Source of the DNA: Candidatus Saccharimonadota bacterium
GTDB taxonomy: Bacteria; Patescibacteriota; Saccharimonadia; Saccharimonadales; Saccharimonadaceae
DNA length: 64,000 nt
Assembly: GCA_009786195.1 (NCBI GenBank)
Contig: WQTP01000043.1
Location: forward strand, 24,503 to 88,502
Direction of reading: 5' to 3'
Positions 4,087 to 61,284 of this stretch are shown here, in pieces. The notes under the pieces were generated by a model. It did no database searches. It was not told where the DNA came from and saw only the letters and a program-made list of their open reading frames with translations. Every line of letters starts with the position of its first letter. Within the stretch, counting starts at the first letter, position 1. The position numbers and the translations under genes are program-made.

Positions 4087-4761
4087 CTATAGTATTTTTT
4101 CGATTTCTTTAATATTAGTTATGTTATGTGTCGCTAGGTTATTTTTAATTCTAATATTATCTGACTTAATCCAAATCGTATCAATACCAGCTTTCACGCC
4201 CAAGATAATATCTTTTTCGTAACCGTTTCCAATTAATACGCAATCCTCTGCCCTGAATTTTGATAGAATCGTAGTTAATGATTTCACATTTGGTTTTAGG
4301 TAATTTCCGTCCACGCAAATAACTTCGTCAAAAAACTTATCCAGACCAATTAATTTTAACTTACCAATTTGCACATATTTAAACCAATTCGTTAAAATAA
4401 TTAGTGTGTACTCTTTATTTTTTGAATAAGTCAGAATTTCACTTGCGCCATCAATTTCTCTCGCCGCCCCTATAGTTGCGTCAAAAAGAGCACGTATCAC
4501 CGTATCTATCGACAAATTATACTTTTTGACAAAAGGACATACCCCCCCCCGTAACAAATTTTTAGTCTCTCGCATAGTAACTACTTTACCACTAAAGTGT
4601 TTATCGAACGCTCTAAAGAAATTCATTATTTCACTAATCACTTCTGTCTTTTTCGACAAGTCCAACCCCAATAAATCCATGAAATCATCGTGACAGTCCA
4701 TCGTCTCGAAATCAAGGTCGACAAGAGTGTTGTCCAAGTCAAAAATTATAACTTTTTTCAT
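4087..4761 (-). CDS. HAD-superfamily hydrolase
   Basis: Motif I is IIFDLDNTLVD and a late GD/K motif region is present. The gene contains a G9 (plus-strand C9) tract at 4542-4550 encoding RGG, in frame. Confidence 0.7.
   Translation of the reverse strand: MKKVIIFDLDNTLVDLDFETMDCHDDFMDLLGLDLSKKTEVISEIMNFFRAFDKHFSGKVVTMRETKNLLRGGVCPFVKKYNLSIDTVIRALFDATIGAAREIDGASEILTYSKNKEYTLIILTNWFKYVQIGKLKLIGLDKFFDEVICVDGNYLKPNVKSLTTILSKFRAEDCVLIGNGYEKDIILGVKAGIDTIWIKSDNIRIKNNLATHNITNIKEIEKIL
4542..4550 (-). repeat. Homopolymer C9 (G9 on coding strand) inside HAD hydrolase gene
   Basis: Counted directly: a + 9 c at 4541-4550. Confidence 0.95.
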
Positions 4762-5649
4762 TTATGTGCTACTCCTCGTTGTTTTACCCGTTGTAATTAT
4801 TTCTGATAGGTAGTTTTCCGCATGAACCAACTCCAGCCATTTAATCTCTGGGTTGCGTCGAAACCAGGTCATTTGTTTTTTCACTAAGTGCCAATCATCA
4901 GTTTGAACAAGTATCATCGCCTCATCACACGAAATTTCGCCATTCAGCATGCGGTGTATAATCGGATAAATATTCGATTTCATGGATTCTAAATCAAAGG
5001 AATATTTTGTTGTTAGATTCTTCACCTCGTCGTACAACTCATCACAAAACATTTGTTCAGTGCGGATTTTGATACGCTCTTTTAATTCGTCTTGGTCTAT
5101 TGTGATCCCCACGACATGGGTGTCGGTGCGGATTTTTTGGCGATTATTTTTTACAACATTTTCCCGTTCAATAGCACGTATTAAGTAGCGTTTGTTCTTA
5201 TGGTTTTCCGGTAGTAGAATGTTGTTATTTTTACAATATTTTTGCAATTCTTCTATCGTCATTTTGTTCAATCTAACGCGCAAATCCGGGTTCGCGTCGT
5301 TATTGAATTCATAGTCAAAAATCACACTATCAATATATAGACCCGACCCACCCACCAGGAACGGGATTTTGCCGCGTGCTCTAATTTCTTCGATTTTAGC
5401 GTTAGCGTACTTTTGAAAATCCGCCACAGTAAAACGTTCATCTGGTTCGACTAAATCGATACCCCAGTGTTTGATTTTCTTTTGTTCGTTGGGGGTTGGT
5501 TTAGCTGTGCCAATATTCATACCTTTATAAATCGCGCGACTATCTGCCGAAATAATTTCACCGTTAAATTTTTTTGCTAATTTAATCGCCAAGTTTGTTT
5601 TGCCACTGGCTGTTGGGCCAACAATCACAATCAGAGGTCGGGAATCCAT
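4762..5649 (-). CDS. miaA: tRNA dimethylallyltransferase
   Basis: IVIVGPTASGKTNLAIKLAKKFNGEIISADSRAIYKGMNIGTAKP is the MiaA P-loop and substrate motif. Confidence 0.9.
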   Translation of the reverse strand: MDSRPLIVIVGPTASGKTNLAIKLAKKFNGEIISADSRAIYKGMNIGTAKPTPNEQKKIKHWGIDLVEPDERFTVADFQKYANAKIEEIRARGKIPFLVGGSGLYIDSVIFDYEFNNDANPDLRVRLNKMTIEELQKYCKNNNILLPENHKNKRYLIRAIERENVVKNNRQKIRTDTHVVGITIDQDELKERIKIRTEQMFCDELYDEVKNLTTKYSFDLESMKSNIYPIIHRMLNGEISCDEAMILVQTDDWHLVKKQMTWFRRNPEIKWLELVHAENYLSEIITTGKTTRSST

Positions 5650-5954
5650 CGTCGTTCCTCGAAATCCACTATTTTGAAATCCTTGATTGGTACGTTCTCG
5701 ATTTCTAAATCCTTCTTGTGACCCTCTTTGCCACCTGGGTAGCCGCTTGCCAGACCGCCAAACCGATTAACCACCCGCTGCCACGGCAAATCTGGGTCGC
5801 CGAAATGCGCCAGCCCGCCAACAATCCGCGCCGCGTATGCTTGCCCGCAAACAGCCGCGATATCACCGTAAGTCATTACACGACCGTACGGAATTTGCGC
5901 CACCACTGCATAAACTCGCTCGCGAAAATTCGGATCATTCATGTTAGACTCCAA
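5631..5954 (-). CDS. Alkyltransferase-like (ATL) protein: MGMT DNA-binding domain without the acceptor cysteine
   Basis: YGRVMTYGDIAAVCG...PWQRVVN is present. The canonical PCHRV active site reads PWQRV (Cys to Trp), which is the hallmark of ATL proteins. Confidence 0.75.
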   Translation of the reverse strand: MESNMNDPNFRERVYAVVAQIPYGRVMTYGDIAAVCGQAYAARIVGGLAHFGDPDLPWQRVVNRFGGLASGYPGGKEGHKKDLEIENVPIKDFKIVDFEERRWIPDL

Positions 5955-6543
5955 AGTAATCTGCTACCCCCCCCCAGTCAGCCACGCGCGTCACGCCAGG
6001 TGCGATTTCTACGTCACGATTCCAACCATAATCACCGAATAATATACTTTCAATGCCGCGTTCTGCCGCCGCGTTAGTGTGTTTGGGTTGGTCGTCAATA
6101 AAATACATCGCGCCAATTTCTTTGACAATATCACCCTTGTTCCGCTTGCCTGAATGTCGATCGGGGTTGTCGTAGTTGCCCGATAGGAAAATCTCTTCTA
6201 TCATTGGAAAATTTCGATTAATCCAAGTTGTTGTCGTATCTAGTATAAACAGCGGTCGCGAAGTCAGCACAACTATCTTGTAACGAGTGGTCAACTTGTC
6301 CAATGCGGATTGAGCACCACGCATTACGGACAGATTAGGATAAATTTCAGGATCGGCAAAAATCATTTGCGCTCTGCGTATCGTTTCGTCGACATCCACT
6401 CCCCACATTTTGGCCCACCAATCATCGTAATCGTCCAGTGTTAAATTACAGCCCAGATTTTTGTTACTATACTCAATAATTTTCGGCGCAAGGACCGTCA
6501 GCACGTCATCAATATCCACCGCGATAATCGGTTTGTTGCTCAT
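5944..6543 (-). CDS. HAD-like 5'(3')-deoxyribonucleotidase family protein
   Basis: The DxDxV motif IAVDIDDVLT is present, and size and architecture are NT5C-like. It has an ATGA-type overlap with thrS. A G9 tract at 5967-5975 is in frame (DWGGV). Confidence 0.5.
   Translation of the reverse strand: MSNKPIIAVDIDDVLTVLAPKIIEYSNKNLGCNLTLDDYDDWWAKMWGVDVDETIRRAQMIFADPEIYPNLSVMRGAQSALDKLTTRYKIVVLTSRPLFILDTTTTWINRNFPMIEEIFLSGNYDNPDRHSGKRNKGDIVKEIGAMYFIDDQPKHTNAAAERGIESILFGDYGWNRDVEIAPGVTRVADWGGVADYFGV
5967..5975 (-). repeat. Homopolymer C9 (G9 on coding strand)
   Basis: Counted directly: 4 c (5967-5970) + 5 c (5971-5975). Confidence 0.95.
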
Positions 6544-8327
6544 AATGATGATTTACTTACTCGGCTGCGGGCTTCGTTGGTAATAGACTTAATTATCTCT
6601 TCTGATGTGTAAACATGCTTAGCTGCGTTATTCGCTACCAAATCTGCACGAATGCGTAGTGGCAATTTCCCGCTTTCGACTTCTTTCTCGCCGATTACGA
6701 CCGAATATGGTACTTTCCAAGTTTCCGCCACACGGATTTTTTTACCAATTGAATTATTACTATCATCAATAGTCGTTCGTATGCCGTTTTCAAACGCTGC
6801 TTCGTTAAGTTTTGTTGCGAAATCTACAACGTTTTTGTTGTCATTAACAGTGATAATTCTCAATTGCTCCGGCGCACACCAAATTGGGAATTTGCCAGCG
6901 GTATGTTCGATATAAACAGATAGAAATCGTTCGATTGAACCCAACAAAGCGCAGTGGATCATCACCGGTCGCGCAATGTTTCCATTCTCGGTCGAATATT
7001 CCAATTCAAAGCGTTCAGGTTGAACAAAGTCGAGTTGCGCTGTAGCTAATTGATGCTCGCGACCAATAGCGTCGGTAGCCATAAAATCAATTTTCGGCCC
7101 GTAAAAAGCCGCTTCGCCTTCCTGTTCGTAGAAATCCAAACCCGCGGTCACTACTGCGTCCTTTAGTTGTTTTTGGGCACTTTCCCATAACTTCACGTCA
7201 CCAAGATAGGCGTCAGAATCATCGCGATATGACAAACGAACCCGCAATTTCATACCGACTGTTTTGTATAATTGATCAACCGCGTTCATTAGGATATTAA
7301 TTTCGGTCTCGATTTGATCCTGCCGACAGAAAATGTGACTATCGTCCTGCGTCAAAGCGCGCACGCGACTCAAACCGCCCAATTCACCTGATTTTTCATC
7401 GCGATAATCCGTTGTGGTTTCCAAATATCGTATCGGTAAATCGCGATACGACCGCGCTTGCGACGCGTAAATTCGCGTGTGGTGCGGACAGTTCATTGGT
7501 TTCATGGCGAACTTGTCGTCGGTTTCTTGTGATTCTACCAGAAAAAGTTCACCTCCAAATTTTGCCCAGTGACCAGATTTTTCGTACAGCGCTGTTTTAG
7601 TGATATGCGGCGTCCAGACTTTTTTAAAACCATAATGTTCGCGCAGTTCGTTAGAATAACGCGCCAACTCTTCGCGTAGTACCGTACCACGCGGCGTGAA
7701 CAGAGGTAGACCAGCCCCAACCATGTCGCTAATCACGAACAAATCCAACTCACGACCCAACTTGCGATGATCGCGTTCTTTTGCCTCTTCTTGTTGTTTC
7801 AGATATTTTTCCAACTCGACGCCCGTCGCGAACGCCACACCGTAGATTCGTTGCATCATGGTATTTTTTTCATCGCCACGCCAATATGCGCCAGCTACCT
7901 TGGTTAATTTAAAAGCATCCGCTGGAATCTCGCTCGTATTGGCTGCATGACCACCGCGACAGAGGTCAGTAAAATCGCCGTTGGTGTAAAACGTGATGGT
8001 CGCGCCCTCCCCCTTTAGGTCGTTTATTAGTTCCGTTTTGTATGGTTGCTCGGTTTCCTTTGCCCACCTCGCAGCTTCGTCCAACGATTTTTCCTCGCCA
8101 ATGAATTCTTGTTTTTCGGTTATAATTTTCTGCATTTCTTGTTCAATTTTCGGTAAATCATCCTCGGAAATTTTGATATCACCAAGATCGAAATCATAGT
8201 AAAAACCGTTTTCGATCACCGGACCGATACCCAATTTTACATTTTTCACCCCATAAATTCGCCGCACCGCCGCCGCTAGAACGTGCGCCAAACTGTGTCT
8301 GATGTTAGAAAGTTGTTCTTCGTTCAT
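6540..8327 (-). CDS. thrS: Threonine--tRNA ligase lacking the N-terminal TGS domain
   Basis: It starts at the editing-domain motif RHSLAHVLAAAV. Class II core motifs and a C-terminal anticodon-binding domain follow. The SD AAGGAGAG lies upstream. Confidence 0.92.
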   Translation of the reverse strand: MNEEQLSNIRHSLAHVLAAAVRRIYGVKNVKLGIGPVIENGFYYDFDLGDIKISEDDLPKIEQEMQKIITEKQEFIGEEKSLDEAARWAKETEQPYKTELINDLKGEGATITFYTNGDFTDLCRGGHAANTSEIPADAFKLTKVAGAYWRGDEKNTMMQRIYGVAFATGVELEKYLKQQEEAKERDHRKLGRELDLFVISDMVGAGLPLFTPRGTVLREELARYSNELREHYGFKKVWTPHITKTALYEKSGHWAKFGGELFLVESQETDDKFAMKPMNCPHHTRIYASQARSYRDLPIRYLETTTDYRDEKSGELGGLSRVRALTQDDSHIFCRQDQIETEINILMNAVDQLYKTVGMKLRVRLSYRDDSDAYLGDVKLWESAQKQLKDAVVTAGLDFYEQEGEAAFYGPKIDFMATDAIGREHQLATAQLDFVQPERFELEYSTENGNIARPVMIHCALLGSIERFLSVYIEHTAGKFPIWCAPEQLRIITVNDNKNVVDFATKLNEAAFENGIRTTIDDSNNSIGKKIRVAETWKVPYSVVIGEKEVESGKLPLRIRADLVANNAAKHVYTSEEIIKSITNEARSRVSKSSL

Positions 8328-8458
8328 ATTCTCTCCTTGCCTTGATAATTTGCTTGATTTTCTAATAAAGTAAAAGTATTTAACCCCGAGGGGTCGTCGT
8401 GTGTGTCAAGTGAAAAATCCGTCTCATGACATCTATTTTATCACTTTTTGAAAAAGTT

Positions 8459-8467
8459 TGGTATAAT
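8459..8467 (+). promoter_or_regulatory. Extended -10 promoter (TGGTATAAT) for tRNA-Val / ABC operon
   Basis: TGnTATAAT lies about 12 nt upstream of the tRNA 5' end. Confidence 0.6.
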
Positions 8468-8479
8468 ATTCTCGACTGG

Positions 8480-8556
8480 GGGTCGGTAGCTCAGTTGGCT
8501 AGAGCGCGTCCTTGACGTGGACGAGGTCCGGGGTTCAAGCCCCTGTCGACCCACCA
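8480..8556 (+). tRNA. tRNA-Val (anticodon GAC), CCA encoded
   Basis: Manual cloverleaf: GGGTCGG TA GCTC AGTTGGCTA GAGC G CGTCC TTGACGT GGACG AGGTC CGGGG TTCAAGC CCCTG TCGACCC A CCA. Confidence 0.9.
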
Positions 8557-8575
8557 AGTAGATTGGAGGGTTATC

Positions 8576-9331
8576 GTGATTATCATTAAAAACCTCACAA
8601 AAAAATTTGGTTCAAAGGTTGCGGTTGACAATATTTCTGTAGCGATTCCCGAAGGTAGAGTTATTGGTTTTCTTGGCCCAAACGGTGCGGGTAAAACGAC
8701 GACTATGAATATTATCTTGGGATTGGAAAAACCCACAGCTGGTGAGGTAAAAATTGACGGTAAGAATTACACTGAATTAAAAGATCCGCTACGAGTCGTG
8801 GGCGCTATAGTCGGTACGAATTTTCACAAAAATCGTTCTTTACGGGAACATTTGAGATTTTTGACGGTTGTGGCTGGTATTCCACGAAACCGCATTGATG
8901 AAGTTTTAGAATTGACTGGTTTAACTGATGTTGCAAAAAAACCAGTCGGAAAATTTAGTCTCGGTATGACACAGCGTGCAGGTATCGCTGCAGCGATTTT
9001 GGGTGAACCGAAATATCTCATCCTCGACGAGCCAGTCAGCGGTCTTGATCCAGAGGGAATCATTTGTGTACGCGAATTCTGCAAAGCTTACGCAGCGGCT
9101 GGGCACACTGTACTTATTTCGTCGCACTTGATGAGTGAGGTCGAACACACAGTTGACGGGGCGATTATTATTGGTCGTGGCAAGATTATTATGACTGGTA
9201 CGCTAAAAGAAATCTTAAGAAAAACCGAAACAAAAACTCTTGAGGCGGCGTTTATTAAGTTGACCGCCAAGGAGGTAGAATTTAGAGCTGGCGAACTACC
9301 TAAATTTAGCGAAGCTGAAGGGGGAAAATAA
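8576..9331 (+). CDS. ABC transporter ATP-binding protein (ABC-2 type)
   Basis: Walker A is GPNGAGKTT, the signature-like motif is FSLGMTQR and Walker B is LILDEP. It uses a GTG start with GGAGGG 6 nt upstream. Confidence 0.85.
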   Translation: MIIIKNLTKKFGSKVAVDNISVAIPEGRVIGFLGPNGAGKTTTMNIILGLEKPTAGEVKIDGKNYTELKDPLRVVGAIVGTNFHKNRSLREHLRFLTVVAGIPRNRIDEVLELTGLTDVAKKPVGKFSLGMTQRAGIAAAILGEPKYLILDEPVSGLDPEGIICVREFCKAYAAAGHTVLISSHLMSEVEHTVDGAIIIGRGKIIMTGTLKEILRKTETKTLEAAFIKLTAKEVEFRAGELPKFSEAEGGK

Positions 9332-9332
9332 T

Positions 9333-10169
9333 ATGTGGAAACTATTAAAATCTGAATTCATCAAAGCGCGCAGTCTCAGGTCGATTCGGCTTTTGTGTAT
9401 TTTTGGTATCTTGATTTTCGTTGCACTGGCGCTCGTATCAGTACAAAACTTGTTAAATGCGAAGTCACTTTCCGATATCAACACATACCAAGATGTTGCG
9501 CGGTATCATCGAGATACTGTGCAGGTTCTCTGGTCTTCTGTGAATGGTGCAATACCGATTATGTTCCAGATAATCGTTGGGATTTTGGCGGTCCTGCTCG
9601 TGACGAACGAATATGTGTCTGGTACAATTAAGAGTTCTTTGATGGCTACGCCACGTCGTTTTAAATTGTTCGTCGCCAAACTGATTTTCACGCTCGCTTT
9701 GATAGCAACACTAACCTTCGTTCTGCAAATTCTAGCGTTCGTTATTGTCTGGTGCTTTCAGAGTGGTCGAATAACTGAGGTTGGTTTATGGGCATCACTA
9801 ACGCAGGATTTCGCAACTAACTGTCTAGCACCAGTTTTGGCCGTTACACTCAGTAGTGCAATTTGGTTCGGTTTTGCTTGGATTATCAGAAATTCTACTG
9901 GTGCAATTTTATTAGGGATTAGTATGGTTCTAATCCTGACGGCTTTAATCAATATGGTATTTGGTTGGGAGCATGGACCCGAAATTAACAACTGGATGCC
10001 ACAAGGGTTTTTCGACCAGGTTTTTGATCCTAGTAGTTCTAGCGTCTGCTCGATCACGAAGAAAGAAGAGCCGTGCTCCGATTTTTTGCGCGGCGTTATT
10101 GGACTAGGTTCTTATACAATTTTAACATTAGCCGTTAGTGCGTTAATTTTTCAAAAAAGAGATGCTTGA
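9333..10169 (+). CDS. ABC-2 family transporter permease
   Basis: It starts 2 nt after the ATPase stop and has about 6 hydrophobic helices. Confidence 0.7.
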   Translation: MWKLLKSEFIKARSLRSIRLLCIFGILIFVALALVSVQNLLNAKSLSDINTYQDVARYHRDTVQVLWSSVNGAIPIMFQIIVGILAVLLVTNEYVSGTIKSSLMATPRRFKLFVAKLIFTLALIATLTFVLQILAFVIVWCFQSGRITEVGLWASLTQDFATNCLAPVLAVTLSSAIWFGFAWIIRNSTGAILLGISMVLILTALINMVFGWEHGPEINNWMPQGFFDQVFDPSSSSVCSITKKEEPCSDFLRGVIGLGSYTILTLAVSALIFQKRDA

Positions 10170-41790: not shown

Positions 41791-44142
41791 TCATAGTTCC
41801 GCCCAATTTTCGCCTGATTTAATATCAACCTTTAACCGCACGCCAAGCTTGGGATAAATATTCTCCATAATTTGTTTCAACCCCGCTCCGACCGTTTCGA
41901 CATCCGCCGGCGCACATTCCACCAAAATACTATCGTGAATCTGGAGAATTTGTTCGCAGATATCGCCCATTTCATCTTCGACGCGCAACATCGCCATTTT
42001 CATCAAATCCGCTTCTGTTCCTTGAATTGGCATGTTAGCCGCAGCACGTTTGGCAGCTTCACGCAATAAATAATTACCTGACTTAACATCTGGTGTTAAA
42101 CGACGGCGACCAAACAAAGTTTCGACGTAACCGCGCTCCTCGGCCTTTTCAACAGTATCATCGATAAAATCGCGAATTGGTTGACGCATGCGAAAATAGC
42201 GCGCGATGAATTCTTTGGCTTTTGAAAAGTCCATCCCAGTCGCCGCCGCTAATCCGTGCGGACTCATACCATACAAAACACCGAAGTTGATCACCTTAGC
42301 ATGACGCCGCATCTCTGGCGTGACGTCATCAAAAGCCACTCCGTAGGCCTCAGCCGCGGTTTTAGTGTGCACGTCAACCGTATCGTCCTGGAAATCCTCA
42401 ATCAAATTCGTGTCGCCGCTGAGCGCCGCCGCTAATCGTAATTCAAATTGAGAATAATCAGCACTAACTAAAACCTTGTCCTCGCTGGCCACAAACGCTC
42501 GGCGAATTTCGCGTCCCAATTCGGTTCGGGTCGGGATATTCTGCAAATTCGGATTGGATGACGATAATCGCCCTGTCGCAGTTACATCTTGGCGAAAATC
42601 AGTATGTAATTTACCGTCCGCCGCCACTAGATTCGGCAACGCATCAACATAGGTATTTTTTAATTTAAGAACTTCGCGCACATCGATTATTTTATCAATA
42701 ATTGGATGTTTACCGTGCAGTTTATCCAATTCACCACGTCCGGTCGAAAAATATCCCCGCATCGATTTTTTGATGCCCGTCGTTGGTAGTTTGAGTTTTT
42801 TGAACAGCACATCAGACAATTGTGGTGCTGAGCTGACATTAAATTCCTGACCAACCACATCCCAAATTTCGCGTTCTAATTTGGCGATTTTCCCGGCGAA
42901 TTCGGCGCTTAGTTTACCCAAAATTTCCACGTCGATTTTGACACCACGCGCCTCGATTTTCGCCAACAAATTCTGCATCGGAAAGTCCAGCTCGCGCGCC
43001 AATTTGGCCAATTTTGGCATGTCGGTCAATCGCTTGGCCTGGTCGGTTGCGACGATTCTTAGCTGCTCGAGATTAGCGACTTTTTCCACCCGCCCCAAGA
43101 GAAATCCGGCGATTCGTGTGTCGAATTTTATTTCCGGCAAAGGTTTCTTTTCGGCCAATAATTTCTCGGCTAAAATTTTACCATCATTGACCACGATTCG
43201 ACCGTCGCTCTCGGTAAAGAAAATTCCCGGCGCGTCCTCAAATTCCGGTTCTGACGCCACCGTGTCATCGCGCATGTAATCCGGCAACCGCCGCAGCAGC
43301 GACGTGAATTCCAATTTTTCCAGCGCCGCGCGCAATTTCGCCGCATCGAAATTTTTGACATCAACCGCGTCCAAATCCAATTTTAACGGCGCATCGCACC
43401 AAATTTTCGCTAGTTCGCGGGACATGTAGGCGCTGTCCCGCCCGGCCGCCAATTTCGTGCGCCAGGCCGGTTTTATTTTGTCCAAATTGTCGTAAATCGC
43501 GTCGAGCGACCCGTACTCTTGTAACAGAATCAACGCAGTTTTTTCGCCAATGCCCGGCACGCCCGGAATGTTGTCGGATGTGTCACCTTTCAAACTTTTC
43601 AGATCCAAAAACTGTTCGACTTTTAATCCATATTTCTTTTCAAAGGCCGCTACATCGAATTTTTCGAGGTTCGCCAAACCTTTTTTCAATGCATACAGTT
43701 CAGTATCGTGATCAACGACCTGTAACATGTCGAGATCCGAACTAATCATCACCGTGTGGATGTCGACCGCGTTGGCCTGCGCCGACAGTGTGCCCATGAT
43801 GTCATCGGCTTCGTAATCGTCCATTTCATACATCGTCCAGCCAAAAGCGTCGAGTAGCTCGGCGAGCAACGGAATCTGCGCGTAAAAATCCGGCGGCGCC
43901 GGCTTGCGATTGGCTTTGTATTCAGGATAAATTTCCAACCGACGACGAATGTTGGTTTTCGATTTATCCCACGCCACTGCCACATAATCCGGTTGAATTC
44001 GTTTCAGTAGCTCCAGCGCCATCGCCGCAAAACCATACACCCCACCCGTCGGTGTGCCGTCCTTGGTCGTCAGATTCGGCATGGCGTAATAACCGCGATA
44101 GAAAATCGACTTGCCATCAATCAGCGCGAACCTCTTGTTCAT
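41791..44142 (-). CDS. polA: DNA polymerase I (5'-nuclease plus polymerase domains; short middle domain)
   Basis: The N-terminus is a FEN-like domain. The polymerase motifs are DYSQFELRLAA (A), RRHAKVINFGVLYG (B) and QIHDSILVE (C). 783 aa. Confidence 0.92.
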   Translation of the reverse strand: MNKRFALIDGKSIFYRGYYAMPNLTTKDGTPTGGVYGFAAMALELLKRIQPDYVAVAWDKSKTNIRRRLEIYPEYKANRKPAPPDFYAQIPLLAELLDAFGWTMYEMDDYEADDIMGTLSAQANAVDIHTVMISSDLDMLQVVDHDTELYALKKGLANLEKFDVAAFEKKYGLKVEQFLDLKSLKGDTSDNIPGVPGIGEKTALILLQEYGSLDAIYDNLDKIKPAWRTKLAAGRDSAYMSRELAKIWCDAPLKLDLDAVDVKNFDAAKLRAALEKLEFTSLLRRLPDYMRDDTVASEPEFEDAPGIFFTESDGRIVVNDGKILAEKLLAEKKPLPEIKFDTRIAGFLLGRVEKVANLEQLRIVATDQAKRLTDMPKLAKLARELDFPMQNLLAKIEARGVKIDVEILGKLSAEFAGKIAKLEREIWDVVGQEFNVSSAPQLSDVLFKKLKLPTTGIKKSMRGYFSTGRGELDKLHGKHPIIDKIIDVREVLKLKNTYVDALPNLVAADGKLHTDFRQDVTATGRLSSSNPNLQNIPTRTELGREIRRAFVASEDKVLVSADYSQFELRLAAALSGDTNLIEDFQDDTVDVHTKTAAEAYGVAFDDVTPEMRRHAKVINFGVLYGMSPHGLAAATGMDFSKAKEFIARYFRMRQPIRDFIDDTVEKAEERGYVETLFGRRRLTPDVKSGNYLLREAAKRAAANMPIQGTEADLMKMAMLRVEDEMGDICEQILQIHDSILVECAPADVETVGAGLKQIMENIYPKLGVRLKVDIKSGENWAEL

Positions 44143-44176: not shown

Positions 44177-44631
44177 TTACGAAAGCAACTTTTTAAGATT
44201 ATCAGCGAATTCACTTTTCAGGAGATTTTCTAAGAATTTCGATTTGTTATCCGGTATTTCGTCGAGCGAATACCATTTCCAACCAAGGCATTTTTCGGGT
44301 TCCATTACCTTTGGTTCACCCCCCCCCGCGCGTAATCAGCGGCGATGGCGATTGTGATGTAATGGCGGTCGTCATCCAGCATCACGTCGTTGGTTACACC
44401 CAAAAAACGCGCGTTGGTAATTTTAATACCAGTTTCTTCCATAACTTCGCGTTCGGCACACTCTTCCCAGGTTTCGCCGAATTCTAAATGACCGCCTGGT
44501 GCGGCAAACATGTTCGCCTGGTGCGCACCAATGCGTTCGCCCATCAATAATTTGCTATCCTTTATGATGTAAACGCCGATACCGACTCCTGGGCGTTTTG
44601 ATTTACTGGACATGTTACTATTTATCTCCAA
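44177..44631 (-). pseudogene. Nudix hydrolase interrupted by a frameshift in a G9 homopolymer (or assembly error)
   Basis: The Nudix box is GGHLEFGETWEECAEREVMEETG. The ORF stops 4 codons after the G9 tract (plus-strand C9, 44319-44327). Adding 1 G or removing 2 G continues the frame as GEPKVMEPEKCLGWKWYSLDEIPDNK...LLS* to 44177, giving a normal ~151-aa Nudix protein. Confidence 0.75.
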
Positions 44632-51130: not shown

Positions 51131-52897
51131 TTATTGAATGTCAATTCCACGCTGTTGTTTGCGCCAGAGTTTTGCATAAAGTTTACCATTTTTTAGAAGT
51201 TCATCGTGCGTACCGTCCTCAATAATCTGACCGTCGTCAATCACGATAATTCGATCCATATCAGAAAGTGTTGATAATCGATGCGCCACCACCATAGCGG
51301 TTTTACCGCGCAGGATATCTTTGAAACTGTCCTTGATAATCTGTTCGCTCTCGCTATCGAGTGCGCTGGTCGCTTCGTCCAGGATCATTACTGGCGCATC
51401 CTGTAACAGCGCCCGCGCAATCGCCACGCGCTGTTTTTGCCCACCAGACAACTTAACACCACGCTCGCCTACGATACTGTCCATACCCCTAGTTAACTTA
51501 TCGACAAACTCGGTGGCATGAGCGCGTCGCAACACTTTCATGATTTCCTCTTCGGTTGCTTCGGGTTTTGCCAGGATAACATTATCACGAATCGATCGAT
51601 GTAACAGCAGCGGTTCTTGCGGCACATAGGCAATTTGGGCGTGTAAATCGGTTTGTCGAACATCGCGCACATCAATATCATCGATTTTCACGCTTCCAGC
51701 GGCGACATCATTAAAACGCAGAATAAGTTTTGCCAGTGTTGATTTACCAGCACCGCTAAGTCCCACCACACCCAATTTTTGTCCGCGCGGAATTTTTAGC
51801 GACAGGCCGCGAAATACTTCTGTACCCCCCCCCACTTCATCGCGATAAGTAAAATCAACATCCTTCAGCTCAATCGCACCCTGCACATGGTCAAATTTTA
51901 TCGGTTTTTTCGGATCTACGATTTTGTTTTCACGATTCAAAATTTCAAACGCTGGTACAATTTGATCAACCAAATCGTCGTGTTCATAAGTGTTTTCTTC
52001 CAATGTGTAAATCGCCATTAAAATCGTGTTGGCATAGGTCGCTACCAACACCGCCGTGGTCAAATCAATCTGTCCGGCCTTTGCCAATCCCACCACCATC
52101 AACATCAGAACGAGGAAGAACGACACCGAAATCATTTCTCGACCTGCCGCAAAAAGTGATTGGAAATTATATCGTCGACTGAACGCTTTCGCCTCAATCA
52201 GAGCATGATTCTCAACTTGTTTAATAATCGCACGCTCCCGGCCCGAAGCTCGAACTGCCACCACATTAGAAATCGCATCCGAAAATACTCCTGAGTGTTT
52301 CTTGTAAAGTTCCCGAGTATATGTGCGCATTTTATCCAACCTGCCCGATGACCACAATATCCAGATCGTCTGAACTGTTCCCAAAACCAGCACCCCTATA
52401 CCGAGTATCCAATTGAAAAAGAAAATCACAATTATCGGAAAGAAAATCCCGAAAATCGTAATCAGGTATTGTTGGCGCCAGGCTCGCACTAACTTTATTG
52501 TGCCGTCAAGAAATTGACGCGTGGCCGTGGTTAAATACCCCGACATGTTTGAATTGAAATACTCAATATCGGTGGTGATGAGCTTAGAAAAATATTCCTT
52601 AGTCAGCATAGTATATGTAGGTTGTTCACCTTTCGTACTGATGAATCGCACTAATGGCGAAATCACACCAATCGTGAATGAACCACCGACGAACCACCAA
52701 ACCGCTATGACCGCTCCATCGTAATTTCCATCGGCCAAACGAGTAATTATCTGCGCTAACGCCACCGGCATGATGACCAATTTGGCGATTTGCGAAATCA
52801 ACCTAAGGATAAAAGAAATTCGCACGTAGATATTTTTACCGTAACTCCGCCACAAAAGTTTATAAACTTTACTGTAGTTTTTTAATCCTCGAAACAT
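51131..52897 (-). CDS. ABC exporter, fused permease/ATPase (MsbA/type I exporter-like)
   Basis: A 6-TM N-terminal half is followed by GLSGAGKST, LSGGQKQRV and MILDEATSALD. The start is set to ATG 52897, sharing one base with the dnaG stop (TAATG). A G9 tract at 51825-51833 is in frame (VGGGT). Confidence 0.85.
   Translation of the reverse strand: MFRGLKNYSKVYKLLWRSYGKNIYVRISFILRLISQIAKLVIMPVALAQIITRLADGNYDGAVIAVWWFVGGSFTIGVISPLVRFISTKGEQPTYTMLTKEYFSKLITTDIEYFNSNMSGYLTTATRQFLDGTIKLVRAWRQQYLITIFGIFFPIIVIFFFNWILGIGVLVLGTVQTIWILWSSGRLDKMRTYTRELYKKHSGVFSDAISNVVAVRASGRERAIIKQVENHALIEAKAFSRRYNFQSLFAAGREMISVSFFLVLMLMVVGLAKAGQIDLTTAVLVATYANTILMAIYTLEENTYEHDDLVDQIVPAFEILNRENKIVDPKKPIKFDHVQGAIELKDVDFTYRDEVGGGTEVFRGLSLKIPRGQKLGVVGLSGAGKSTLAKLILRFNDVAAGSVKIDDIDVRDVRQTDLHAQIAYVPQEPLLLHRSIRDNVILAKPEATEEEIMKVLRRAHATEFVDKLTRGMDSIVGERGVKLSGGQKQRVAIARALLQDAPVMILDEATSALDSESEQIIKDSFKDILRGKTAMVVAHRLSTLSDMDRIIVIDDGQIIEDGTHDELLKNGKLYAKLWRKQQRGIDIQ
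51825..51833 (-). repeat. Homopolymer C9 (G9 on coding strand)
   Basis: Counted directly: 6 c (51825-51830) + 3 c (51831-51833). Confidence 0.95.
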
Positions 52898-55699: not shown

Positions 55700-56600
55700 A
55701 TTCGATTCCCGCTTTTAGGATTTCTTTGCGTAACCAAGGACGCTCAGCCACCGCGATTCCCTGTTCATTAAATTGTACACCCGTTAACTTTGTCATTATT
55801 TCGGAAATCGATTTATCGTTGGTCACAAACTGACTTTTGCATCCAGAAATGTCAATCAAGTTCAGTAGCCATTTTTCTTTACCCAAGATTTTTAATACAT
55901 CAGTCCGTCGCCGTTGCCAAAAGTCCGCCCCATCCCACACTGCCAACTGAGCGGTATTTATTGGCTCGGCAAACGACGGGATTATTAGCTCCTTGGTGTC
56001 ATTTTTTATCGAGTCCGCCAAATCGCGCTCGATGTCGACCGACACGCCCGAAAAATACCACTCTCTCAAATCACCATCAAAATTCGCCCTGTTCAAGCAA
56101 TCATCATACGCCACCCGATCACGCTCCGTCGTCACGCCGGCCTGGAAATCCAACGTTTGATCCAAAATTGCACAAACTATCAATCGCGCCGAAAGTTCGC
56201 TCATTTGTTCCAACTGGTCAGCGTCGCGCCACTTTTCCCAAATCAACGTGGCCGCCGCGCCAATTGGTTCAATCTGCATTCCATTACCAATTCGCTCGCG
56301 CCAATATTCTTCATAACCAGGATGATGATCGACGATTTCTGTGACATTGTCCGCCCATGATGGAAAATAACTCGGTTCCGAAGCGTCTACTATTATATAA
56401 GTATCGCCGGGTTTTCGTTCGTCTGGATTCGTAATATTAAATGACCATGTCCGCATCTCGCTGGGAATGCTGGCATTAAATGGCGCCCGCGACATAGCCG
56501 TGGCCGGCTCACCGATTTTGTTCAACAATTCGGCATAGGCGACCATCGCCGCCAGCCCGTCAATATCAATATAAACATCTGTAACACAGACGTTTTTCAT
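55686..56600 (-). CDS. DHH-family phosphoesterase (NrnA / family II pyrophosphatase-like)
   Basis: Motif I is YIDIDGLA and the DHH motif is IVDHHPG. The protein is 304 aa. Its substrate cannot be assigned from sequence. Confidence 0.6.
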   Translation of the reverse strand: MKNVCVTDVYIDIDGLAAMVAYAELLNKIGEPATAMSRAPFNASIPSEMRTWSFNITNPDERKPGDTYIIVDASEPSYFPSWADNVTEIVDHHPGYEEYWRERIGNGMQIEPIGAAATLIWEKWRDADQLEQMSELSARLIVCAILDQTLDFQAGVTTERDRVAYDDCLNRANFDGDLREWYFSGVSVDIERDLADSIKNDTKELIIPSFAEPINTAQLAVWDGADFWQRRRTDVLKILGKEKWLLNLIDISGCKSQFVTNDKSISEIMTKLTGVQFNEQGIAVAERPWLRKEILKAGIEYAKS

Positions 56601-57133
56601 CGTTTGACCTTGCCCAAATAGATTTTGAGTTCGGCGATTGAACCTTCGATATCTTCGATTGCTCGATGCGTGTCGGGTTTGACGAATTTGGCGCCAAATT
56701 TGTTTTCAAAAACGATTTTCCACGCTGATACATCCAACATCCGATAATGCAACTTCTTGTCCAATCGCGACCACTCTCGCTCAATAAATTTTCGATCCTG
56801 ATGAATCGAATTCCCCGCCAGATAAATCGGTTCGTCTGTTTTGAAATTCTGTTTCAGGAAATTCAGTATTTCATTTTCGACCGCGCGCGGTGATTTACCA
56901 TTCAACAAACTCTCGGCGGCCAGCGTTTCGCGCACCGCCGAATTTTGTTCCCAGAATTCACCAACCATGCGTCGTCGCATCAACCGCGGACTCACTTTGA
57001 CCGCCGCCGCATAACGCGCCACCTCCACGAAATTCCAATCCGTCGCAATCGCCGCCACCTCAACAATCCGATCCCGAGCCGGATCCAACCCCGTCATCTC
57101 TAAATCAATCCACAAAAGTTGCGCCTTTTTCAT
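56597..57133 (-). CDS. orn: Oligoribonuclease (DEDDh 3'-5' exonuclease)
   Basis: LLWIDLEMTGLDPARDRIVEVA and the C-terminal HRAIEDIEGSIAEL are present. Confidence 0.85.
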   Translation of the reverse strand: MKKAQLLWIDLEMTGLDPARDRIVEVAAIATDWNFVEVARYAAAVKVSPRLMRRRMVGEFWEQNSAVRETLAAESLLNGKSPRAVENEILNFLKQNFKTDEPIYLAGNSIHQDRKFIEREWSRLDKKLHYRMLDVSAWKIVFENKFGAKFVKPDTHRAIEDIEGSIAELKIYLGKVKR

Positions 57134-57152
57134 ATTTCTATTCTAGCACATT

Positions 57153-60041
57153 TCACGAACATCCCGACGTTGAACCGCACAGTTCGCAGATGTGGCAGGA
57201 GCCGGCGGGGCGCATTTTGACGCCGCAGTTCATGCAGATTGGGGCGTCGCTGTCGCTAATATTGTTCAATTCCGCTGTTGAATGTGGTGTGCTAGCACCG
57301 ATTTTAACCTCGACTAGGTCGCCGACTTTTTCTAGTTTTTCTGGTGCATCATCAATTTTCATTTCTAAACTACCCGCACCGTTTTCTTTGCTACCGGATT
57401 CATCACTTAAGTTTTTGTCAGATTCTAGCGGCGCTGGTGTATATTCACCAGTTTCAATAGCTCGTTGACGTTCTTCGGTTGTGTAGATTCCGTAACTAGC
57501 ACGCGTGTCAAATGGTAAGTAATCCAGCGCTAAACGTCGGAAAATATAATCTATCGGACTTTGGGCAAATCGTATATCTGGGTCATTCGTGATACCCGCT
57601 GGATCAAAACGTGTATTGATAAATTTCTTAACATAAGTTTCTAGCGGTACGCCATATTGCAAACTAACTGAAATAGCCGTCGCGAAAGCGTCCATTAATC
57701 CCGCTAACGTTGAACCTTGTTTACTAACACTGACGAAGATTTCGCCCACACCGTTGTTTGGGTACGAGCCAGCGGTTAAGTAACCCTCCGCACCACCTAC
57801 CTCAAATTTATAGATTCGTGCTGGACGAGTTTGGGGTAATTTATGACGCACTGCGTGTCGCTCTTTGATTGAATTTTCTTTGGTTTCTGCCTCGTTTTCG
57901 TCCGTTTTATTTTTCTTTTTGCCATCCGAAAGAGGTTGACCAACTTTACAATTATCTCGATAAATCGCGATCGCTTTGAGCCCCATTTTCCAACCTTCTA
58001 GATAAACCTTTTCAACATCCTTAACAGTAGCTGACTCTGGCATGTTGACTGTTTTACTAATCGCACCACTGAGAAACGGCTGCACCGCCGCCATCATACG
58101 CAGGTGACCCATGGGTTCAATCGCTCGATCACCGACCGCACAATCGAACACGTCGTAATGTTCTAGTTTAAGTTCGGGCGCGCCGACAACATTTCCGTTC
58201 TTGGCGATATAACTAACGATTTTTTTGATTTGATCGTCATCGTAGCCCAAGGTTTCTAATGCTCGCGGGATTGTTTGATTAACGATTTGCATCGATCCAC
58301 CACCAACCAATTTTTTGAATTTAACCAAGGAAAAGTCCGGCTCAATTCCCGTCGTGTCACAATCCATCATAAAACCAATCGTACCTGTCGGTGCGAGTAA
58401 ACTGGCCTGTGAATTGCGCCAACCGTACTCTGCACCTAATTTAATACCATCTTCCCACTCGCGATTAGCCGCAAAGATAATATCTTCAGCGTTGATGTGA
58501 AAATCTTTATCTATAATATCGTCAGTTTTCGCCATCGACGCGGCTGCGTGCTGACGCATCACCGCGGTGTGAGCGGCGACGTTCTTGGCATAACCATCAT
58601 AAGGTCCAACCGTCGCTGCCATTTCCGCACTGCGCCGATAAGCGGCCGCCGTCATCAGGCTGGTAATCGCCGCCGCCACATTTTGCCCTTCTGGACTATC
58701 GTATGGTAAACCAATCGCCATGAGCAACGCGCCAAGATTCGCGTATCCAATACCAAGTTGTCGAAACTTGCGCGTGTTAGTGGTAATTTTCTCGGTTGGA
58801 AAATCGCCAAAAGTAACCGACAAATCCATCGCTGTAAAGATTATCTCAACAGCCGCGATAAATTGATCAACGTTGAATTTACCGTTGTTACCCAAAAACT
58901 TCAACAGATTAATCGACGCTAAATTGCACGAACTGTTATCAATCGACATGTATTCTGAACAAGGATTACTAGCGGTAATTTTGCCATCATTCGGGATAGT
59001 GTGCCAAGCATTAATTGTATTATCATATTGAATACCAGGATCAGCACATGCCCAAGCCGCCTGTGCTAATTTACCAAATAATTCACGTGCATCAACAGTT
59101 TCAATTACACTACCATCGCGACGAGCGCGCAGGCCAAACGGTGCACCGGCCTCAACTGCATGCATAAACTCATCACTCACGCGTACGCTGTTATTAGCGT
59201 TTTGATATTGCACACTATAAGTATCACGACCATCAACATCCATGTCAAAACCAGCATCACGCAGTGCGCGAATCTTATCTTCTTCGCGAACTTTGGTCTC
59301 GATAAAAGCTTCAATGTCGGGATGATCGATATCTAACACCACCATCTTGGCCGCTCGCCTGGTCGCGCCACCACTGGCGATTGTACCCGCCGAAGCATCA
59401 GCACCACGCATGAATGATACTGGACCTGATGCTTTGCCACCTGAACTCAAGCCCTCTTTAGCACCACGAATCCGACTCAAGTTAACGCCAGAGCCCGAAC
59501 CACGTTTGAAAATTTTACCTTCTTCGACGTACCAATTGAGAATCGCATCCATATCATCTTCGACACCCAAAATGAAACAGCCTGAAACTTGTTGCGGCGC
59601 ATCAGTACCAACATTAAACCAAACTGGCGAATTAAAACTAAACATCTGATGCAGTAACATCCACTTTAGTTCTTTTTGAAAAATCTCTGCGTCTCTCGCG
59701 GTGGCAAAATAATTGTCCTTTTTACCCTGGGCGACATACTTATTAGCAACTCTATCAATCAATTGTTTAAGGGAGTTCTCGCGATCATTAGTTCCTAATT
59801 TACCACGAAAATATTTACTGGTTACAATTTGGGTAGCATTCAACGACCAAAAATCCGGAAATTCAACACCTTTTTGTTCAAAAGAAACGCTGCCGTCGCG
59901 CCAATTGGTCATTACAACATCGCGTTTTTCCCATTTTACTTCGTCGTACGGATCAACGTTTGGTTTAGAAAAAACATAATCAAACTGTAATTTTTTCTCA
60001 CCAGTTCGCTGCGCACCTAACGATCTACCCCTCTGAGCCAT
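57153..60041 (-). CDS. nrdJ: Class II (adenosylcobalamin-dependent) ribonucleotide reductase
   Basis: It is 962 aa with the active-site context ASNPCSEYMS and a C-terminal Cys-rich tail, CMNCGVKMRPAGSCHICELCGSTSGCS. The SD AAGGGGGT lies upstream. Confidence 0.88.
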   Translation of the reverse strand: MAQRGRSLGAQRTGEKKLQFDYVFSKPNVDPYDEVKWEKRDVVMTNWRDGSVSFEQKGVEFPDFWSLNATQIVTSKYFRGKLGTNDRENSLKQLIDRVANKYVAQGKKDNYFATARDAEIFQKELKWMLLHQMFSFNSPVWFNVGTDAPQQVSGCFILGVEDDMDAILNWYVEEGKIFKRGSGSGVNLSRIRGAKEGLSSGGKASGPVSFMRGADASAGTIASGGATRRAAKMVVLDIDHPDIEAFIETKVREEDKIRALRDAGFDMDVDGRDTYSVQYQNANNSVRVSDEFMHAVEAGAPFGLRARRDGSVIETVDARELFGKLAQAAWACADPGIQYDNTINAWHTIPNDGKITASNPCSEYMSIDNSSCNLASINLLKFLGNNGKFNVDQFIAAVEIIFTAMDLSVTFGDFPTEKITTNTRKFRQLGIGYANLGALLMAIGLPYDSPEGQNVAAAITSLMTAAAYRRSAEMAATVGPYDGYAKNVAAHTAVMRQHAAASMAKTDDIIDKDFHINAEDIIFAANREWEDGIKLGAEYGWRNSQASLLAPTGTIGFMMDCDTTGIEPDFSLVKFKKLVGGGSMQIVNQTIPRALETLGYDDDQIKKIVSYIAKNGNVVGAPELKLEHYDVFDCAVGDRAIEPMGHLRMMAAVQPFLSGAISKTVNMPESATVKDVEKVYLEGWKMGLKAIAIYRDNCKVGQPLSDGKKKNKTDENEAETKENSIKERHAVRHKLPQTRPARIYKFEVGGAEGYLTAGSYPNNGVGEIFVSVSKQGSTLAGLMDAFATAISVSLQYGVPLETYVKKFINTRFDPAGITNDPDIRFAQSPIDYIFRRLALDYLPFDTRASYGIYTTEERQRAIETGEYTPAPLESDKNLSDESGSKENGAGSLEMKIDDAPEKLEKVGDLVEVKIGASTPHSTAELNNISDSDAPICMNCGVKMRPAGSCHICELCGSTSGCS

Positions 60042-60085
60042 GATTACCCCCTTGAACTCTTATTATTTATTTCAGTGCTGCCCAA

Positions 60086-60101
60086 ACACTATATCTATTG
60101 T
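60086..60101. promoter_or_regulatory. NrdR box A (ACACTATATCTATTGT)
   Basis: It matches the palindromic NrdR consensus acaCwAtATaTwGtgt at 14 of 16 positions. It overlaps the minus-strand extended -10 TGCTACAAT (60097-60105). Confidence 0.6.
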
Positions 60102-60118
60102 AGCACGTTCAAAAAACA

Positions 60119-60134
60119 ACGCTATATGTAGTTT
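60119..60134. promoter_or_regulatory. NrdR box B (ACGCTATATGTAGTTT)
   Basis: It matches the consensus at 13 of 16 positions and lies 33 bp from box A, the tandem arrangement typical of NrdR operators. Confidence 0.5.
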
Positions 60135-60151
60135 TTACTACATTTACAACT

Positions 60152-60415
60152 TTACGCCGCTAATTCCGGTGCAATTTGAGCCAGCGCGAGTGGCGGATTA
60201 ACTACCGCTAAATAAGCCGTCGCTAGCGTACCTACCGCAAAAATCGTCTCGTTCTTGGCTGTGGCTGCAAAAGATTCATCCTCTAACTCCGCCATGAAAA
60301 TCCCCAACTGCGCCAGATTTCGCTGTCTTGCTTCTGCTTCTGCTTTTTCTCTTAAAAACGCCTCGTGCGAGGTTGGTGTCTCGTCAGTTCTCACCAGATA
60401 TTCCGGTTGTATCAT
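60152..60415 (-). CDS. Hypothetical 87-aa protein
   Basis: The ORF has the SD GTGAGGTAAG and a near-consensus promoter upstream. I recognise no motif. Confidence 0.5.
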   Translation of the reverse strand: MIQPEYLVRTDETPTSHEAFLREKAEAEARQRNLAQLGIFMAELEDESFAATAKNETIFAVGTLATAYLAVVNPPLALAQIAPELAA

Positions 60416-60439
60416 GACTTACCTCACTTTACAACTATG

Positions 60440-60467
60440 ATTATATCAAATATTTCAATTTTGTCAA
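60440..60467 (-). promoter_or_regulatory. Near-consensus promoter: TTGACA - 16 nt - TATAAT
   Basis: On the minus strand, TTGACA is at 60467-60462 and TATAAT at 60445-60440. Confidence 0.65.
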
Positions 60468-60504
60468 GTTTCAGTTACAATACCAACGATACATACTCAC
60501 ATAG

Positions 60505-61284
60505 TTAGGTTCGACTCAAAAACTCTGGGGTTAGGCAGTATAACATAGTAGTAAGGTAATGACCGAAAGTAGTAGTTCTAACTCTTGGCTCTACGCCAGC
60601 TCTCTTTAGGTCGTCGATGTATTGTTGTTGATAAACCGTTGGAATTACCTCATCATTGGCCGATTGAACAACACTAACCGTTTTTCCGCGCAAATCGTTA
60701 GCGTACTCGCTCGGCGCTAGATTTTTCCAGGCGATAGTCACGTCCTCCGCTGTGATGCCCTGCTGTTCGAAATCATCGCGAATATGACTAGTGCGAATAC
60801 CATTCCACATGCTGTTCGCTAAACTATCGGCAGTCAACACTAACTGAGCACTATCAAAATCAGGGAATTCGCGAGCTACCATCGCCAGCGCCACATTACC
60901 CAATGAAAGACCGATGAAAGATATCTTTTCATATTCATCACGGATCTTGAATAAGTGATGGGCGATCTTGTTTTTTATATTTTCAAATGAATCAATGGTA
61001 GTTTGTAGGTTGTTAGATAGAATATCGTCATGAAATGTGAGAGCTAAAACAGCTCGCCCCCCCCCTGCAATACGTCTCGCTAGAGCATTAGGAAAAACAG
61101 ATCCGCCATGCCAAGGTCCGAACACAACAGCCAGGTCAGTCGCATCACCATTGATTAGCTGCTGTCGAACGATAGCTTGTTCTGGCGAATATGAAGGGTC
61201 AAGTCCTCTACTCTCACCTGAGGCCCGCCTGGCCATTATCCTGTCTAGCATGCCAGAATTATACACTATATCTTGGTTTGGCAC
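60505..61284 (-). CDS. Alpha/beta-fold hydrolase
   Basis: The nucleophile elbow is GLSLGN (GxSxG). A G9 tract at 61057-61065 is in frame (AGGGR). Confidence 0.6.
   Translation of the reverse strand: MPNQDIVYNSGMLDRIMARRASGESRGLDPSYSPEQAIVRQQLINGDATDLAVVFGPWHGGSVFPNALARRIAGGGRAVLALTFHDDILSNNLQTTIDSFENIKNKIAHHLFKIRDEYEKISFIGLSLGNVALAMVAREFPDFDSAQLVLTADSLANSMWNGIRTSHIRDDFEQQGITAEDVTIAWKNLAPSEYANDLRGKTVSVVQSANDEVIPTVYQQQYIDDLKRAGVEPRVRTTTFGHYLTTMLYCLTPEFLSRT
61057..61065 (-). repeat. Homopolymer C9 (G9 on coding strand)
   Basis: Counted directly: 4 c (61057-61060) + 5 c (61061-61065). Confidence 0.95.

Follow-up and report, generated by a model that had tools for sequence, protein, structure and literature searches.

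Switching of genes by slippage in simple repeats is a textbook mechanism, and the systems closest to the one described here are found in Campylobacter jejuni, whose polyG/C contingency loci were reportedly described by Parkhill in 2000 and whose strain NCTC11168 has a genome of about 1.6 Mb. Homopolymer switches can also be located in promoter spacers, such as the poly-G tract of porA and the poly-C tracts of opc and fetA in Neisseria meningitidis and the poly-A tract of vlp in Mycoplasma hyorhinis. The genes of Buchnera and Blochmannia contain poly-A tracts that are driven by AT bias and rescued by transcriptional slippage. Saccharibacteria, like other Patescibacteria, live as obligate epibionts, and their genomes are minimal and encode few regulators. 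No reports of phase variation, homopolymer tracts or contingency loci in Saccharibacteria, Patescibacteria or the candidate phyla radiation were found in the searchable full-text literature. Here we examine a 64-kb stretch of DNA (the window) from a Candidatus Saccharimonadota bacterium, in which five genes each carry a run of exactly nine guanines on the sense strand. The tracts are very probably real, slippage-prone repeats. By analogy with Campylobacter, slippage during replication most likely alters their length and could in this way switch genes on or off. The evidence leans towards a tract set that works at least partly as stochastic switches; for the five tracts of the window, selection as switches has an even chance at best.

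The window lies on contig C43 of an 88% complete genome (G000) that comprises 772 kb in 43 contigs. The first-pass annotation had placed five C9 runs on the plus strand, all inside minus-strand genes. Every run is found to the base where it was placed, each lies within a minus-strand open reading frame (ORF) whose sense strand reads G9, and translation returns the frame contexts that had been assigned (Table 1). The estimate of about 44% GC agrees with the measured 43.8%. The expectation of well under one C9 or G9 run was borne out by 100 dinucleotide-preserving shuffles, which gave a mean of 0.15 and at most 2 such runs against the five observed. The plus strand is without G9, as had been claimed, and indeed without any G run of at least 7 nt; in the whole window no G or C run of 7 nt or longer, lengths 7 and 8 included, occurs besides the five C9. 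At one tract per 12.8 kb, the window has the same density as the genome on average, and its five tracts reflect a feature of the whole genome rather than a local oddity.

In the whole genome, G/C runs of 6, 7, 8, 9, 10 and 11 nt number 56, 8, 4, 48, 8 and 3, respectively. The counts fall geometrically from 3 to 8 nt, by a factor of 0.19 per base, and runs of 7 nt (8 vs 10.8 expected) and 8 nt (4 vs 2.1 expected) are at background. At 9 nt and above, 59 runs are observed where geometric extrapolation from lengths 3–6 predicts 0.5, an excess of about 120-fold; the genome-wide count that the first-pass annotation had proposed as a check thus gives clear enrichment. The mode is sharp, with 48 of the 59 tracts exactly 9 nt long, and in the sister species it is likewise 9, followed by 10. 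All of these lengths exceed the 7–8 nt from which slippage is frequent in G/C homopolymers. Runs of A/T decrease monotonically without a second peak and include only two of 9 nt. Preservation of the reading frame, by addition of three bases to a run of six, was considered as a cause of the peak and rejected: the mode of the intergenic tracts is identical, and the commoner precursors G4 and G5 would yield lengths 7 and 8.

The placement of the tracts of at least 8 nt (n = 63) was determined with our own crude self-trained gene caller, which assigned 91% of the DNA as coding. Intergenic tracts are strongly overrepresented (22 of 63, with 8.6% of the DNA intergenic; p = 5e-9), and of the 41 genic tracts, 18 fall within the initial 12% of their ORF (p = 3e-7). 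In the gene calls of the corresponding contigs at the European Nucleotide Archive (ENA), several tracts fall at codons 6–18 of hypothetical proteins and read Thr-Pro-Pro in the sense direction. The location of G on the coding strand, which the first-pass annotation had emphasized, holds for the five window tracts but not for the genome, where 27 genic tracts are poly-G and 14 are poly-C in the sense orientation. Tract-bearing genes often lack a recognizable domain: 7 of 11 had no Pfam match compared to 13 of 51 neighbours (p = 0.03), and for 10 of a further 20 tract genes that were scanned no match was obtained at E values up to 0.001. Elsewhere in the genome, a glycosyltransferase gene carries a poly-C tract at its 5' end.

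The nature of the base following the tract suggests how the runs may arise. In 45 of 59 tracts (76%) the G run is followed by T, and in 26 by TA; intergenic, sense-G and sense-C tracts are alike in this respect. The share of runs followed by T climbs with run length, from 42% for G4 to 52% for G5 and 61% for G6. In GnT hot spots, transient slippage inserts a G at the T that follows the run (PMC12344412), and the 3'-T preference observed here may match such a hot spot, as may the overlapping contig ends of C28 and C35, where the difference is precisely that between G9TGT and G11T. The likeness lies in slippage-linked T-to-G change that extends G runs with a 3' T; the difference is that the runs studied by Horton et al. 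(2025) were G3–G5, that substitutions were scored, and that the organisms were Pseudomonas and Salmonella (PMC12344412).

The length distribution has a precedent in C. jejuni, which likewise lacks mismatch repair and in which the modal length of polyG/C tracts is nine; G8 and G9 mutate chiefly by insertion and G10 and G11 chiefly by deletion, at rates of 1e-4 to 4e-3 per division (PMC3401435). An insertion/deletion bias of this type produces an attractor at 9–10 nt, which would enrich length 9 and leave lengths 7 and 8 unchanged. In the mechanism that we propose, a G-rich site with a 3' T would lengthen via replication slippage and T-to-G misincorporation. Beyond about 8 nt the bulge would evade proofreading by the polymerase, and without mismatch repair the run would soon reach an equilibrium near 9–10 nt, with insertions prevailing below and deletions above this length. 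Tracts would persist where they are tolerated or useful, that is, in promoter spacers, in first codons and in the loops and termini of mostly accessory genes. A slip of one base in either direction within a gene would shift the frame and give a heritable, reversible ON or OFF state, while a slip in a promoter tract would alter the spacing between the –35 and –10 elements. We infer growth of the runs to 9 nt by the GnT route, as well as the hypermutability, reversibility and adaptive use of the tracts.

The resemblance to C. jejuni includes the presence of G/C mononucleotide tracts with a mode of nine, the lack of MutS and MutL, the occurrence of dozens of mostly intragenic tracts in a small genome, and the finding of both ON and OFF frames. 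There are also differences. The tracts are about four times denser here, with 59 in 0.77 Mb compared to 29 tracts of at least 7 nt in NCTC11168 (PMC4965091). The genes involved are mostly hypothetical or metabolic, whereas in C. jejuni capsule, lipooligosaccharide and flagellar modification genes are affected. Many tracts are located in promoters, the host is an ultrasmall patescibacterial epibiont instead of a proteobacterial pathogen, and switching is predicted from the sequence. The tracts of Buchnera and Blochmannia are comparable in that a reduced genome contains many intragenic homopolymers, some of them out of frame, that are tolerated in a symbiont with small populations. However, those tracts are A/T, and here only G/C runs are in excess.

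The promoter class is the most regular in layout. The G run lies directly upstream of the –10 hexamer, in the arrangement TTGACAAA-N6-G9-TA(A/G)ACT (Table 1). The pattern TTGACW-N-G(8 or more)-TAnnnT occurs in 5, 9, 6, 1 and 2 copies in five related genomes, compared to 0–1 for the reversed pattern used as control. In promoters of this kind with 8–14 G, the run occupies the 3' half of the spacer, and spacer lengths vary from 14 to 19 nt. In the sister species (G001) a promoter cassette of about 55 nt that contains the tract, CAAATTCACGAAATTATTATAAAACCCCTTGACTTTTTGC-G9/10-TACACT, is repeated ahead of successive unrelated hypothetical genes, at C2:18452-22562 and at other sites, and is followed by a shared leader, AATGYGGTGGGAGAGGAG. 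The position of the G run between –35 and –10 in this genome and four relatives, with spacers scattered around the 17-nt optimum, resembles the porA, opc and vlp switches. In contrast to those systems, where one family of surface proteins is controlled, the downstream genes are unrelated hypotheticals and the effect on expression is only predicted; furthermore, no tract of the window is of the promoter-spacer type. In the promoters of frr and hrcA, G9 is found in this genome but not in four relatives. Ahead of hrcA, the G9 (C34:22444) immediately precedes a CIRCE-like inverted repeat (TTAGCACTC-N9-GAGTGCTAT). At C4:385, the final codons of rplC are made up of a G9, which lies 7 nt ahead of the rplD start in a position like that of a Shine–Dalgarno (SD) sequence. 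The rplC gene was considered as an OFF gene and rejected, since the tract sits at its natural 3' end.

Relatives of the organism show how the tracts are distributed. A 16S rRNA gene was not found in this metagenome-assembled genome (MAG), and the taxonomic placement rests on PolA, which is closest to Candidatus Saccharibacteria MAGs (61–82% identity). Their isolate names (Th196P4bin6, Emb289P3bin132 and others) are those of what we take to be termite-gut MAGs. PolA itself, encoded in the window at 41791-44142, matched only the 5'–3' exonuclease and polymerase domains in the Pfam scan, and no 3'–5' exonuclease domain was reported. In 31 genomes of the order (G000–G030) no MutS_V or MutL_C domain was detected save one marginal MutS_V match in G002, while control genomes did match. 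Nine of these 31 near relatives are tract-rich and 15 have no tracts; in a sample of 251 genomes across the order, tract-rich ones occur in at least seven families. G000 and its genus lack a Y-family polymerase (IMS), which 221 of the 251 genomes possess. Loss of DinB/IMS was considered as a cause: the polymerase is absent from 7 of 9 tract-rich compared to 5 of 22 tract-poor near relatives (Fisher p = 0.012, uncorrected for kinship), and from 3 of 8 compared to 27 of 243 genomes order-wide (p = 0.057). This loss is neither necessary nor sufficient, as several tract-rich genomes possess the polymerase, and it is a weak lead only. A DnaQ-like exonuclease was rejected as a correlate because it is present in every genome searched. 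At orthologous sites of the sister species the tracts are missing, and by this comparison they are young, derived expansions in tolerant loops and termini; ancestral states were obtained from the ABC exporter and from distant Nudix homologues.

The five window tracts form a third class besides promoter and first-codon tracts: they lie inside or at the 3' end of coding sequences, in accessory genes for enzymes and transporters. Their relative positions in the ORFs range from 0.28 to 0.95, so none is 5'-proximal, and for none of the five was a TTGAC-like box upstream or an intergenic location found. As judged from the reading frames, the genes for the HAD nucleotidase, NT5C, the ABC exporter and the alpha/beta hydrolase would currently be ON and the NUDT15-like Nudix gene OFF. 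The best NCBIfam match of the HAD protein is TIGR02254 (YjjG, noncanonical pyrimidine nucleotidase; 7.6e-22), and its 77.9 bits are below the cut-off of 159.9. The tract in the NT5C gene precedes the start codon (ATG) of the following gene by 25 nt; that gene encodes an MGMT-type DNA-binding protein (5631-5942). Three of the five genes encode nucleotide house-cleaning enzymes (the YjjG-like HAD protein, NT5C and the NUDT1/NUDT15-like Nudix hydrolase), and the neighbours of these genes include the MGMT-type protein and miaA. In the ABC exporter of the sister species (protein 69% identical), the site reads Asn-Gly-Gly-Thr (AATGGCGGA) and is 3 nt shorter than the VGGGT segment found here. For the alpha/beta-hydrolase-like protein no Pfam match was obtained, and the match to an RcgR-family lactone hydrolase was weak. 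Orthologues of the HAD, alpha/beta-hydrolase and Nudix proteins were not found in the five nearest tract-rich relatives, which suggests that these three genes are probably dispensable.

The Nudix gene is the only one of the five that is frame-shifted, and a tract of G10 (or G7) would restore a single frame of 145 aa. This is within the range of intact homologues, which have 141–145 aa and 64–73% identity. Relatives of solved structure in the Protein Data Bank are Nudix hydrolase 1 (4.4e-32) and NUDT15 (7e-29). At the tract site all nine aligned homologues, seven of which share 64–73% identity, have two residues fewer (ADYA--NGEP against ADYARGGGEP here). A full-length form at 100% identity was not present in the database; only the truncated product of this population was found.

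Table 1. Location of the tracts and of the genes or promoters that carry them. Positions without a contig name refer to the window; the other contigs belong to the same genome (G000).
Feature	Location	Strand	Tract	Remarks
HAD-superfamily hydrolase, 224 aa	4087..4761	-		Pfam HAD_2 8.5e-13
Tract in HAD hydrolase gene	4542..4550	-	G9	In frame, R-G-G(-V), about residue 71-73
NT5C-type 5'(3')-deoxyribonucleotidase, 199 aa	5944..6543	-		Pfam profile covered 1-172/180, complete
Tract in NT5C gene	5967..5975	-	G9	In frame, W-G-G, 8 codons ahead of stop
NUDT1/NUDT15/MutT-like Nudix hydrolase gene, frame-shifted	44177..44613	-		Pfam NUDIX 2.5e-15 (5' part)
Tract in Nudix gene	44319..44327	-	G9	Disrupts frame; stop 4 codons after tract
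MsbA-like ABC exporter (permease + ATPase), 598 aa	51131..52927	-		Orthologues in relatives, without tract
Tract in ABC exporter gene	51825..51833	-	G9	In frame, V-G-G-G-T, variable loop just before Walker A in the ATPase domain
Alpha/beta-hydrolase-like protein, 259 aa	60505..61284	-		HGG and G-L-S-L-G motifs
Tract in alpha/beta-hydrolase gene	61057..61065	-	G9	In frame, A-G-G-G-R, between HGG oxyanion strand and following strand
DGR-type reverse transcriptase	C19:8686		G9	OFF candidate; G10 would give one 378-aa frame
AAT-like gene	C27:6747		G10	OFF candidate
Hypothetical gene	C21:1516		G10	OFF candidate
Hypothetical gene	C10:1222		G8	OFF candidate
Promoter-spacer tract	C1:1978-2007			Tract position C1:1993
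Promoter-spacer tract	C3:3168-3198			Tract position C3:3183
Promoter-spacer tract	C26:3080-3109			Tract position C26:3086
Promoter-spacer tract	C36:27083-27112			Tract position C36:27089
Promoter-spacer tract	C37:19128-19157			Tract position C37:19134

Both frame states are represented in the genome, with the Nudix gene OFF at G9, four further OFF candidates outside the window, and most tracts ON (Table 1). One of the candidates encodes the reverse transcriptase of a diversity-generating retroelement (DGR) that is located at C19:7115-9370. The enzyme has an IGNLTSQ motif and matches Pfam RVT_1 (3.7e-19) and the PADLOC reverse transcriptase model (1.2e-48). The template repeat of 113 nt (7115-7227) and the variable repeat (7474-7586) differ at 15 positions, all of which are adenines of the coding strand. 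The variable repeat forms the 3' end of a 240-aa gene that is homologous to a gene found behind a poly-G promoter in the sister species.

Exact-protein look-ups led to only two further assemblies of the population, ENA ERZ27257346 (with k141 names in MEGAHIT style) and the Logan contigs of SRR6219231, and both were compared to the MAG. Over about 59 kb with 15 tracts, the MAG, ENA and Logan contigs show 100% identity; in the ENA assembly, C24-C27-C43 and C32-C16 are each joined. Of the 86 contig ends, 9 are no more than 100 nt away from a tract (p = 4e-8), and 18 pairs of contig ends (including C23 and C37) overlap by 55–93 nt and can be joined. In one overlap, between C28:1-87 and C35:27433-27519, the sequences differ by a single base, with G11T in one and G9TGT in the other. 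In the sister genome, the sole two N's in about 47 kb are at the 3' edges of tracts, L060:1498 (G10) and L075:1509 (G9), which suggests disagreement among reads or sub-assemblies at these positions. The contig ends and the N's are weak signs of length heterogeneity and are also compatible with Illumina errors after poly-G.

In view of the above, several explanations of the tracts can be considered. Switching is supported by the fixed promoter-spacer layout across species, the 5'-codon class, the glycosyltransferase gene with its 5' poly-C tract and the OFF state predicted for the DGR reverse transcriptase. A number of observations weigh on the other side. Many relatives that equally lack mismatch repair have no tracts, so its absence alone is no explanation and is necessary at most. 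OFF states are present in only about 5 of some 45 genic tracts, tract positions turn over rapidly, and the three assemblies give the same length at every tract compared. Close relatives of the population, which were sought in metagenome contigs with a holB-like protein whose gene adjoins six tracts, were not found. Tracts also occur within PurL, PurM and PyrF, at the 3' terminus of rplC, and ahead of frr, murD and hrcA; an OFF state would be harmful for such housekeeping genes, which favours a by-product of mutation. No tract of the window is 5'-proximal or in a promoter, and the five genes encode nucleotide house-cleaning enzymes, an exporter and a hydrolase rather than the surface, host-interaction, modification or defence functions that are typical of contingency loci. 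The proposal of the first-pass annotation that these are phase-variable tracts as in Campylobacter and Neisseria therefore stands in part. The excess at a hypermutable length, the absence of MutS and MutL, the enrichment in promoters and 5' regions elsewhere in the genome and the presence of one OFF gene agree with it; for the internal and 3'-terminal tracts in the enzyme and transporter genes of the window an adaptive role as switches is unproven.

The strongest alternative is that the hypermutable tracts of these five genes, and perhaps most intragenic ones, are only non-adaptive sequences at an insertion-biased slippage equilibrium in a small-population symbiont without mismatch repair. They would be slightly deleterious, drift would have fixed them where loops are tolerant and genes dispensable, and the frameshift in the Nudix gene would be the onset of decay instead of a switch. 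We regard this as a tentative explanation, one that could well apply although we would not adopt it. It accounts for tracts that are derived insertions at loops and termini, for the lack of positional conservation in the sister species, for the three window genes that have no orthologue in five relatives, for the excess of tract genes without a Pfam match, and for the tracts inside purine and pyrimidine biosynthesis genes or adjoining essential genes. That the 3'-T rule applies whatever the coding orientation is what mutation, rather than selection, would be expected to produce. However, the strong enrichment in promoter spacers, at a fixed spot beside the –10 box in five genomes, makes tolerance alone less likely as an explanation. 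The enrichment in the first codons of ORFs, the repetition of the tract-bearing promoter cassette in the sister species, and the presence of a defence or diversification gene, the DGR reverse transcriptase, among the OFF genes also speak against it.

A more far-reaching possibility, which we consider doubtful, is that the lineage runs a self-reinforcing 'phasome'. In this scenario tracts would continually arise at G-rich sites before T and turn over on a species-level time scale, and about 8% of the genes, including those behind promoter cassettes, the DGR reverse transcriptase and the nucleotide-pool sanitizers, would be under stochastic control. The OFF-switchable Nudix gene would act as a phase-variable mutator, since loss of a NUDT15/MutT-like hydrolase would raise the T-to-G changes that lengthen tracts. 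If true, such a phasome would be a second-order evolvability system by which an ultrasmall epibiont keeps pace with its bacterial host.

It is also conceivable, although very improbable, that G9 is a stable functional sequence that is kept for Gly-Gly-Gly or Pro-Pro-Pro linkers, as a G-rich promoter or SD-like element, or as a protein-binding site, with a length that is not unusually variable. Such a role would agree with the equal lengths in all assemblies, the mostly intact frames, the abutment of G runs on –10 hexamers and the SD-like tract upstream of rplD. It does not explain that the same length and the 3'-T rule are found in all contexts and orientations, coding or not, that positions differ between species, that frames break exactly at tracts, or that promoter spacers spread over a range of 14 to 19 nt. 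Moreover, G/C runs of at least 9 nt are hypermutable wherever they were measured without mismatch repair (PMC3401435).

An artefact of sequencing or assembly, be it the homopolymer-calling ceiling that the first-pass annotation had raised, a polishing error or a two-colour poly-G signal, might be suspected from the single length shared by 48 of 59 tracts, the several contigs whose ends coincide with tracts (C7, for instance, with G11 at base 1) and the probable origin of the compared assemblies from the same reads, but is hardly credible in view of lengths of 8, 10 and 11 here and up to 17 in relatives, the agreement of three different assemblers at 15 tracts, the unique sequence flanking both sides, the long ORFs that are mostly in frame (with at least 17 tracts in ORF interiors), the alignment of tract codons with G-rich codons of orthologues (ABC exporter, Nudix) and the occurrence of poly-G tracts elsewhere in the genus and across at least seven families of the order.

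Novel here are the host group, a census that covers the whole genome, the sharpness of the mode at 9, the 3'-T rule, the involvement of non-surface genes and the patchy phylogenetic distribution. To our knowledge, the way in which Patescibacteria vary the interaction with their hosts and phages is largely unknown. If the tracts switch, some 60 of them in 0.77 Mb, denser than in Campylobacter, would stand in for regulation at low cost. A large number of seeming pseudogenes in these MAGs would then be read as OFF states, and frameshifts at G9–G10 should not be 'corrected' or counted as assembly errors. With their patchy spread among relatives that are just as repair-deficient, and with the 3'-T rule, the tracts provide a test case for the origin of homopolymer attractors. 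Even if the tracts represent only mutational load, they still quantify what the loss of mismatch repair costs these organisms.

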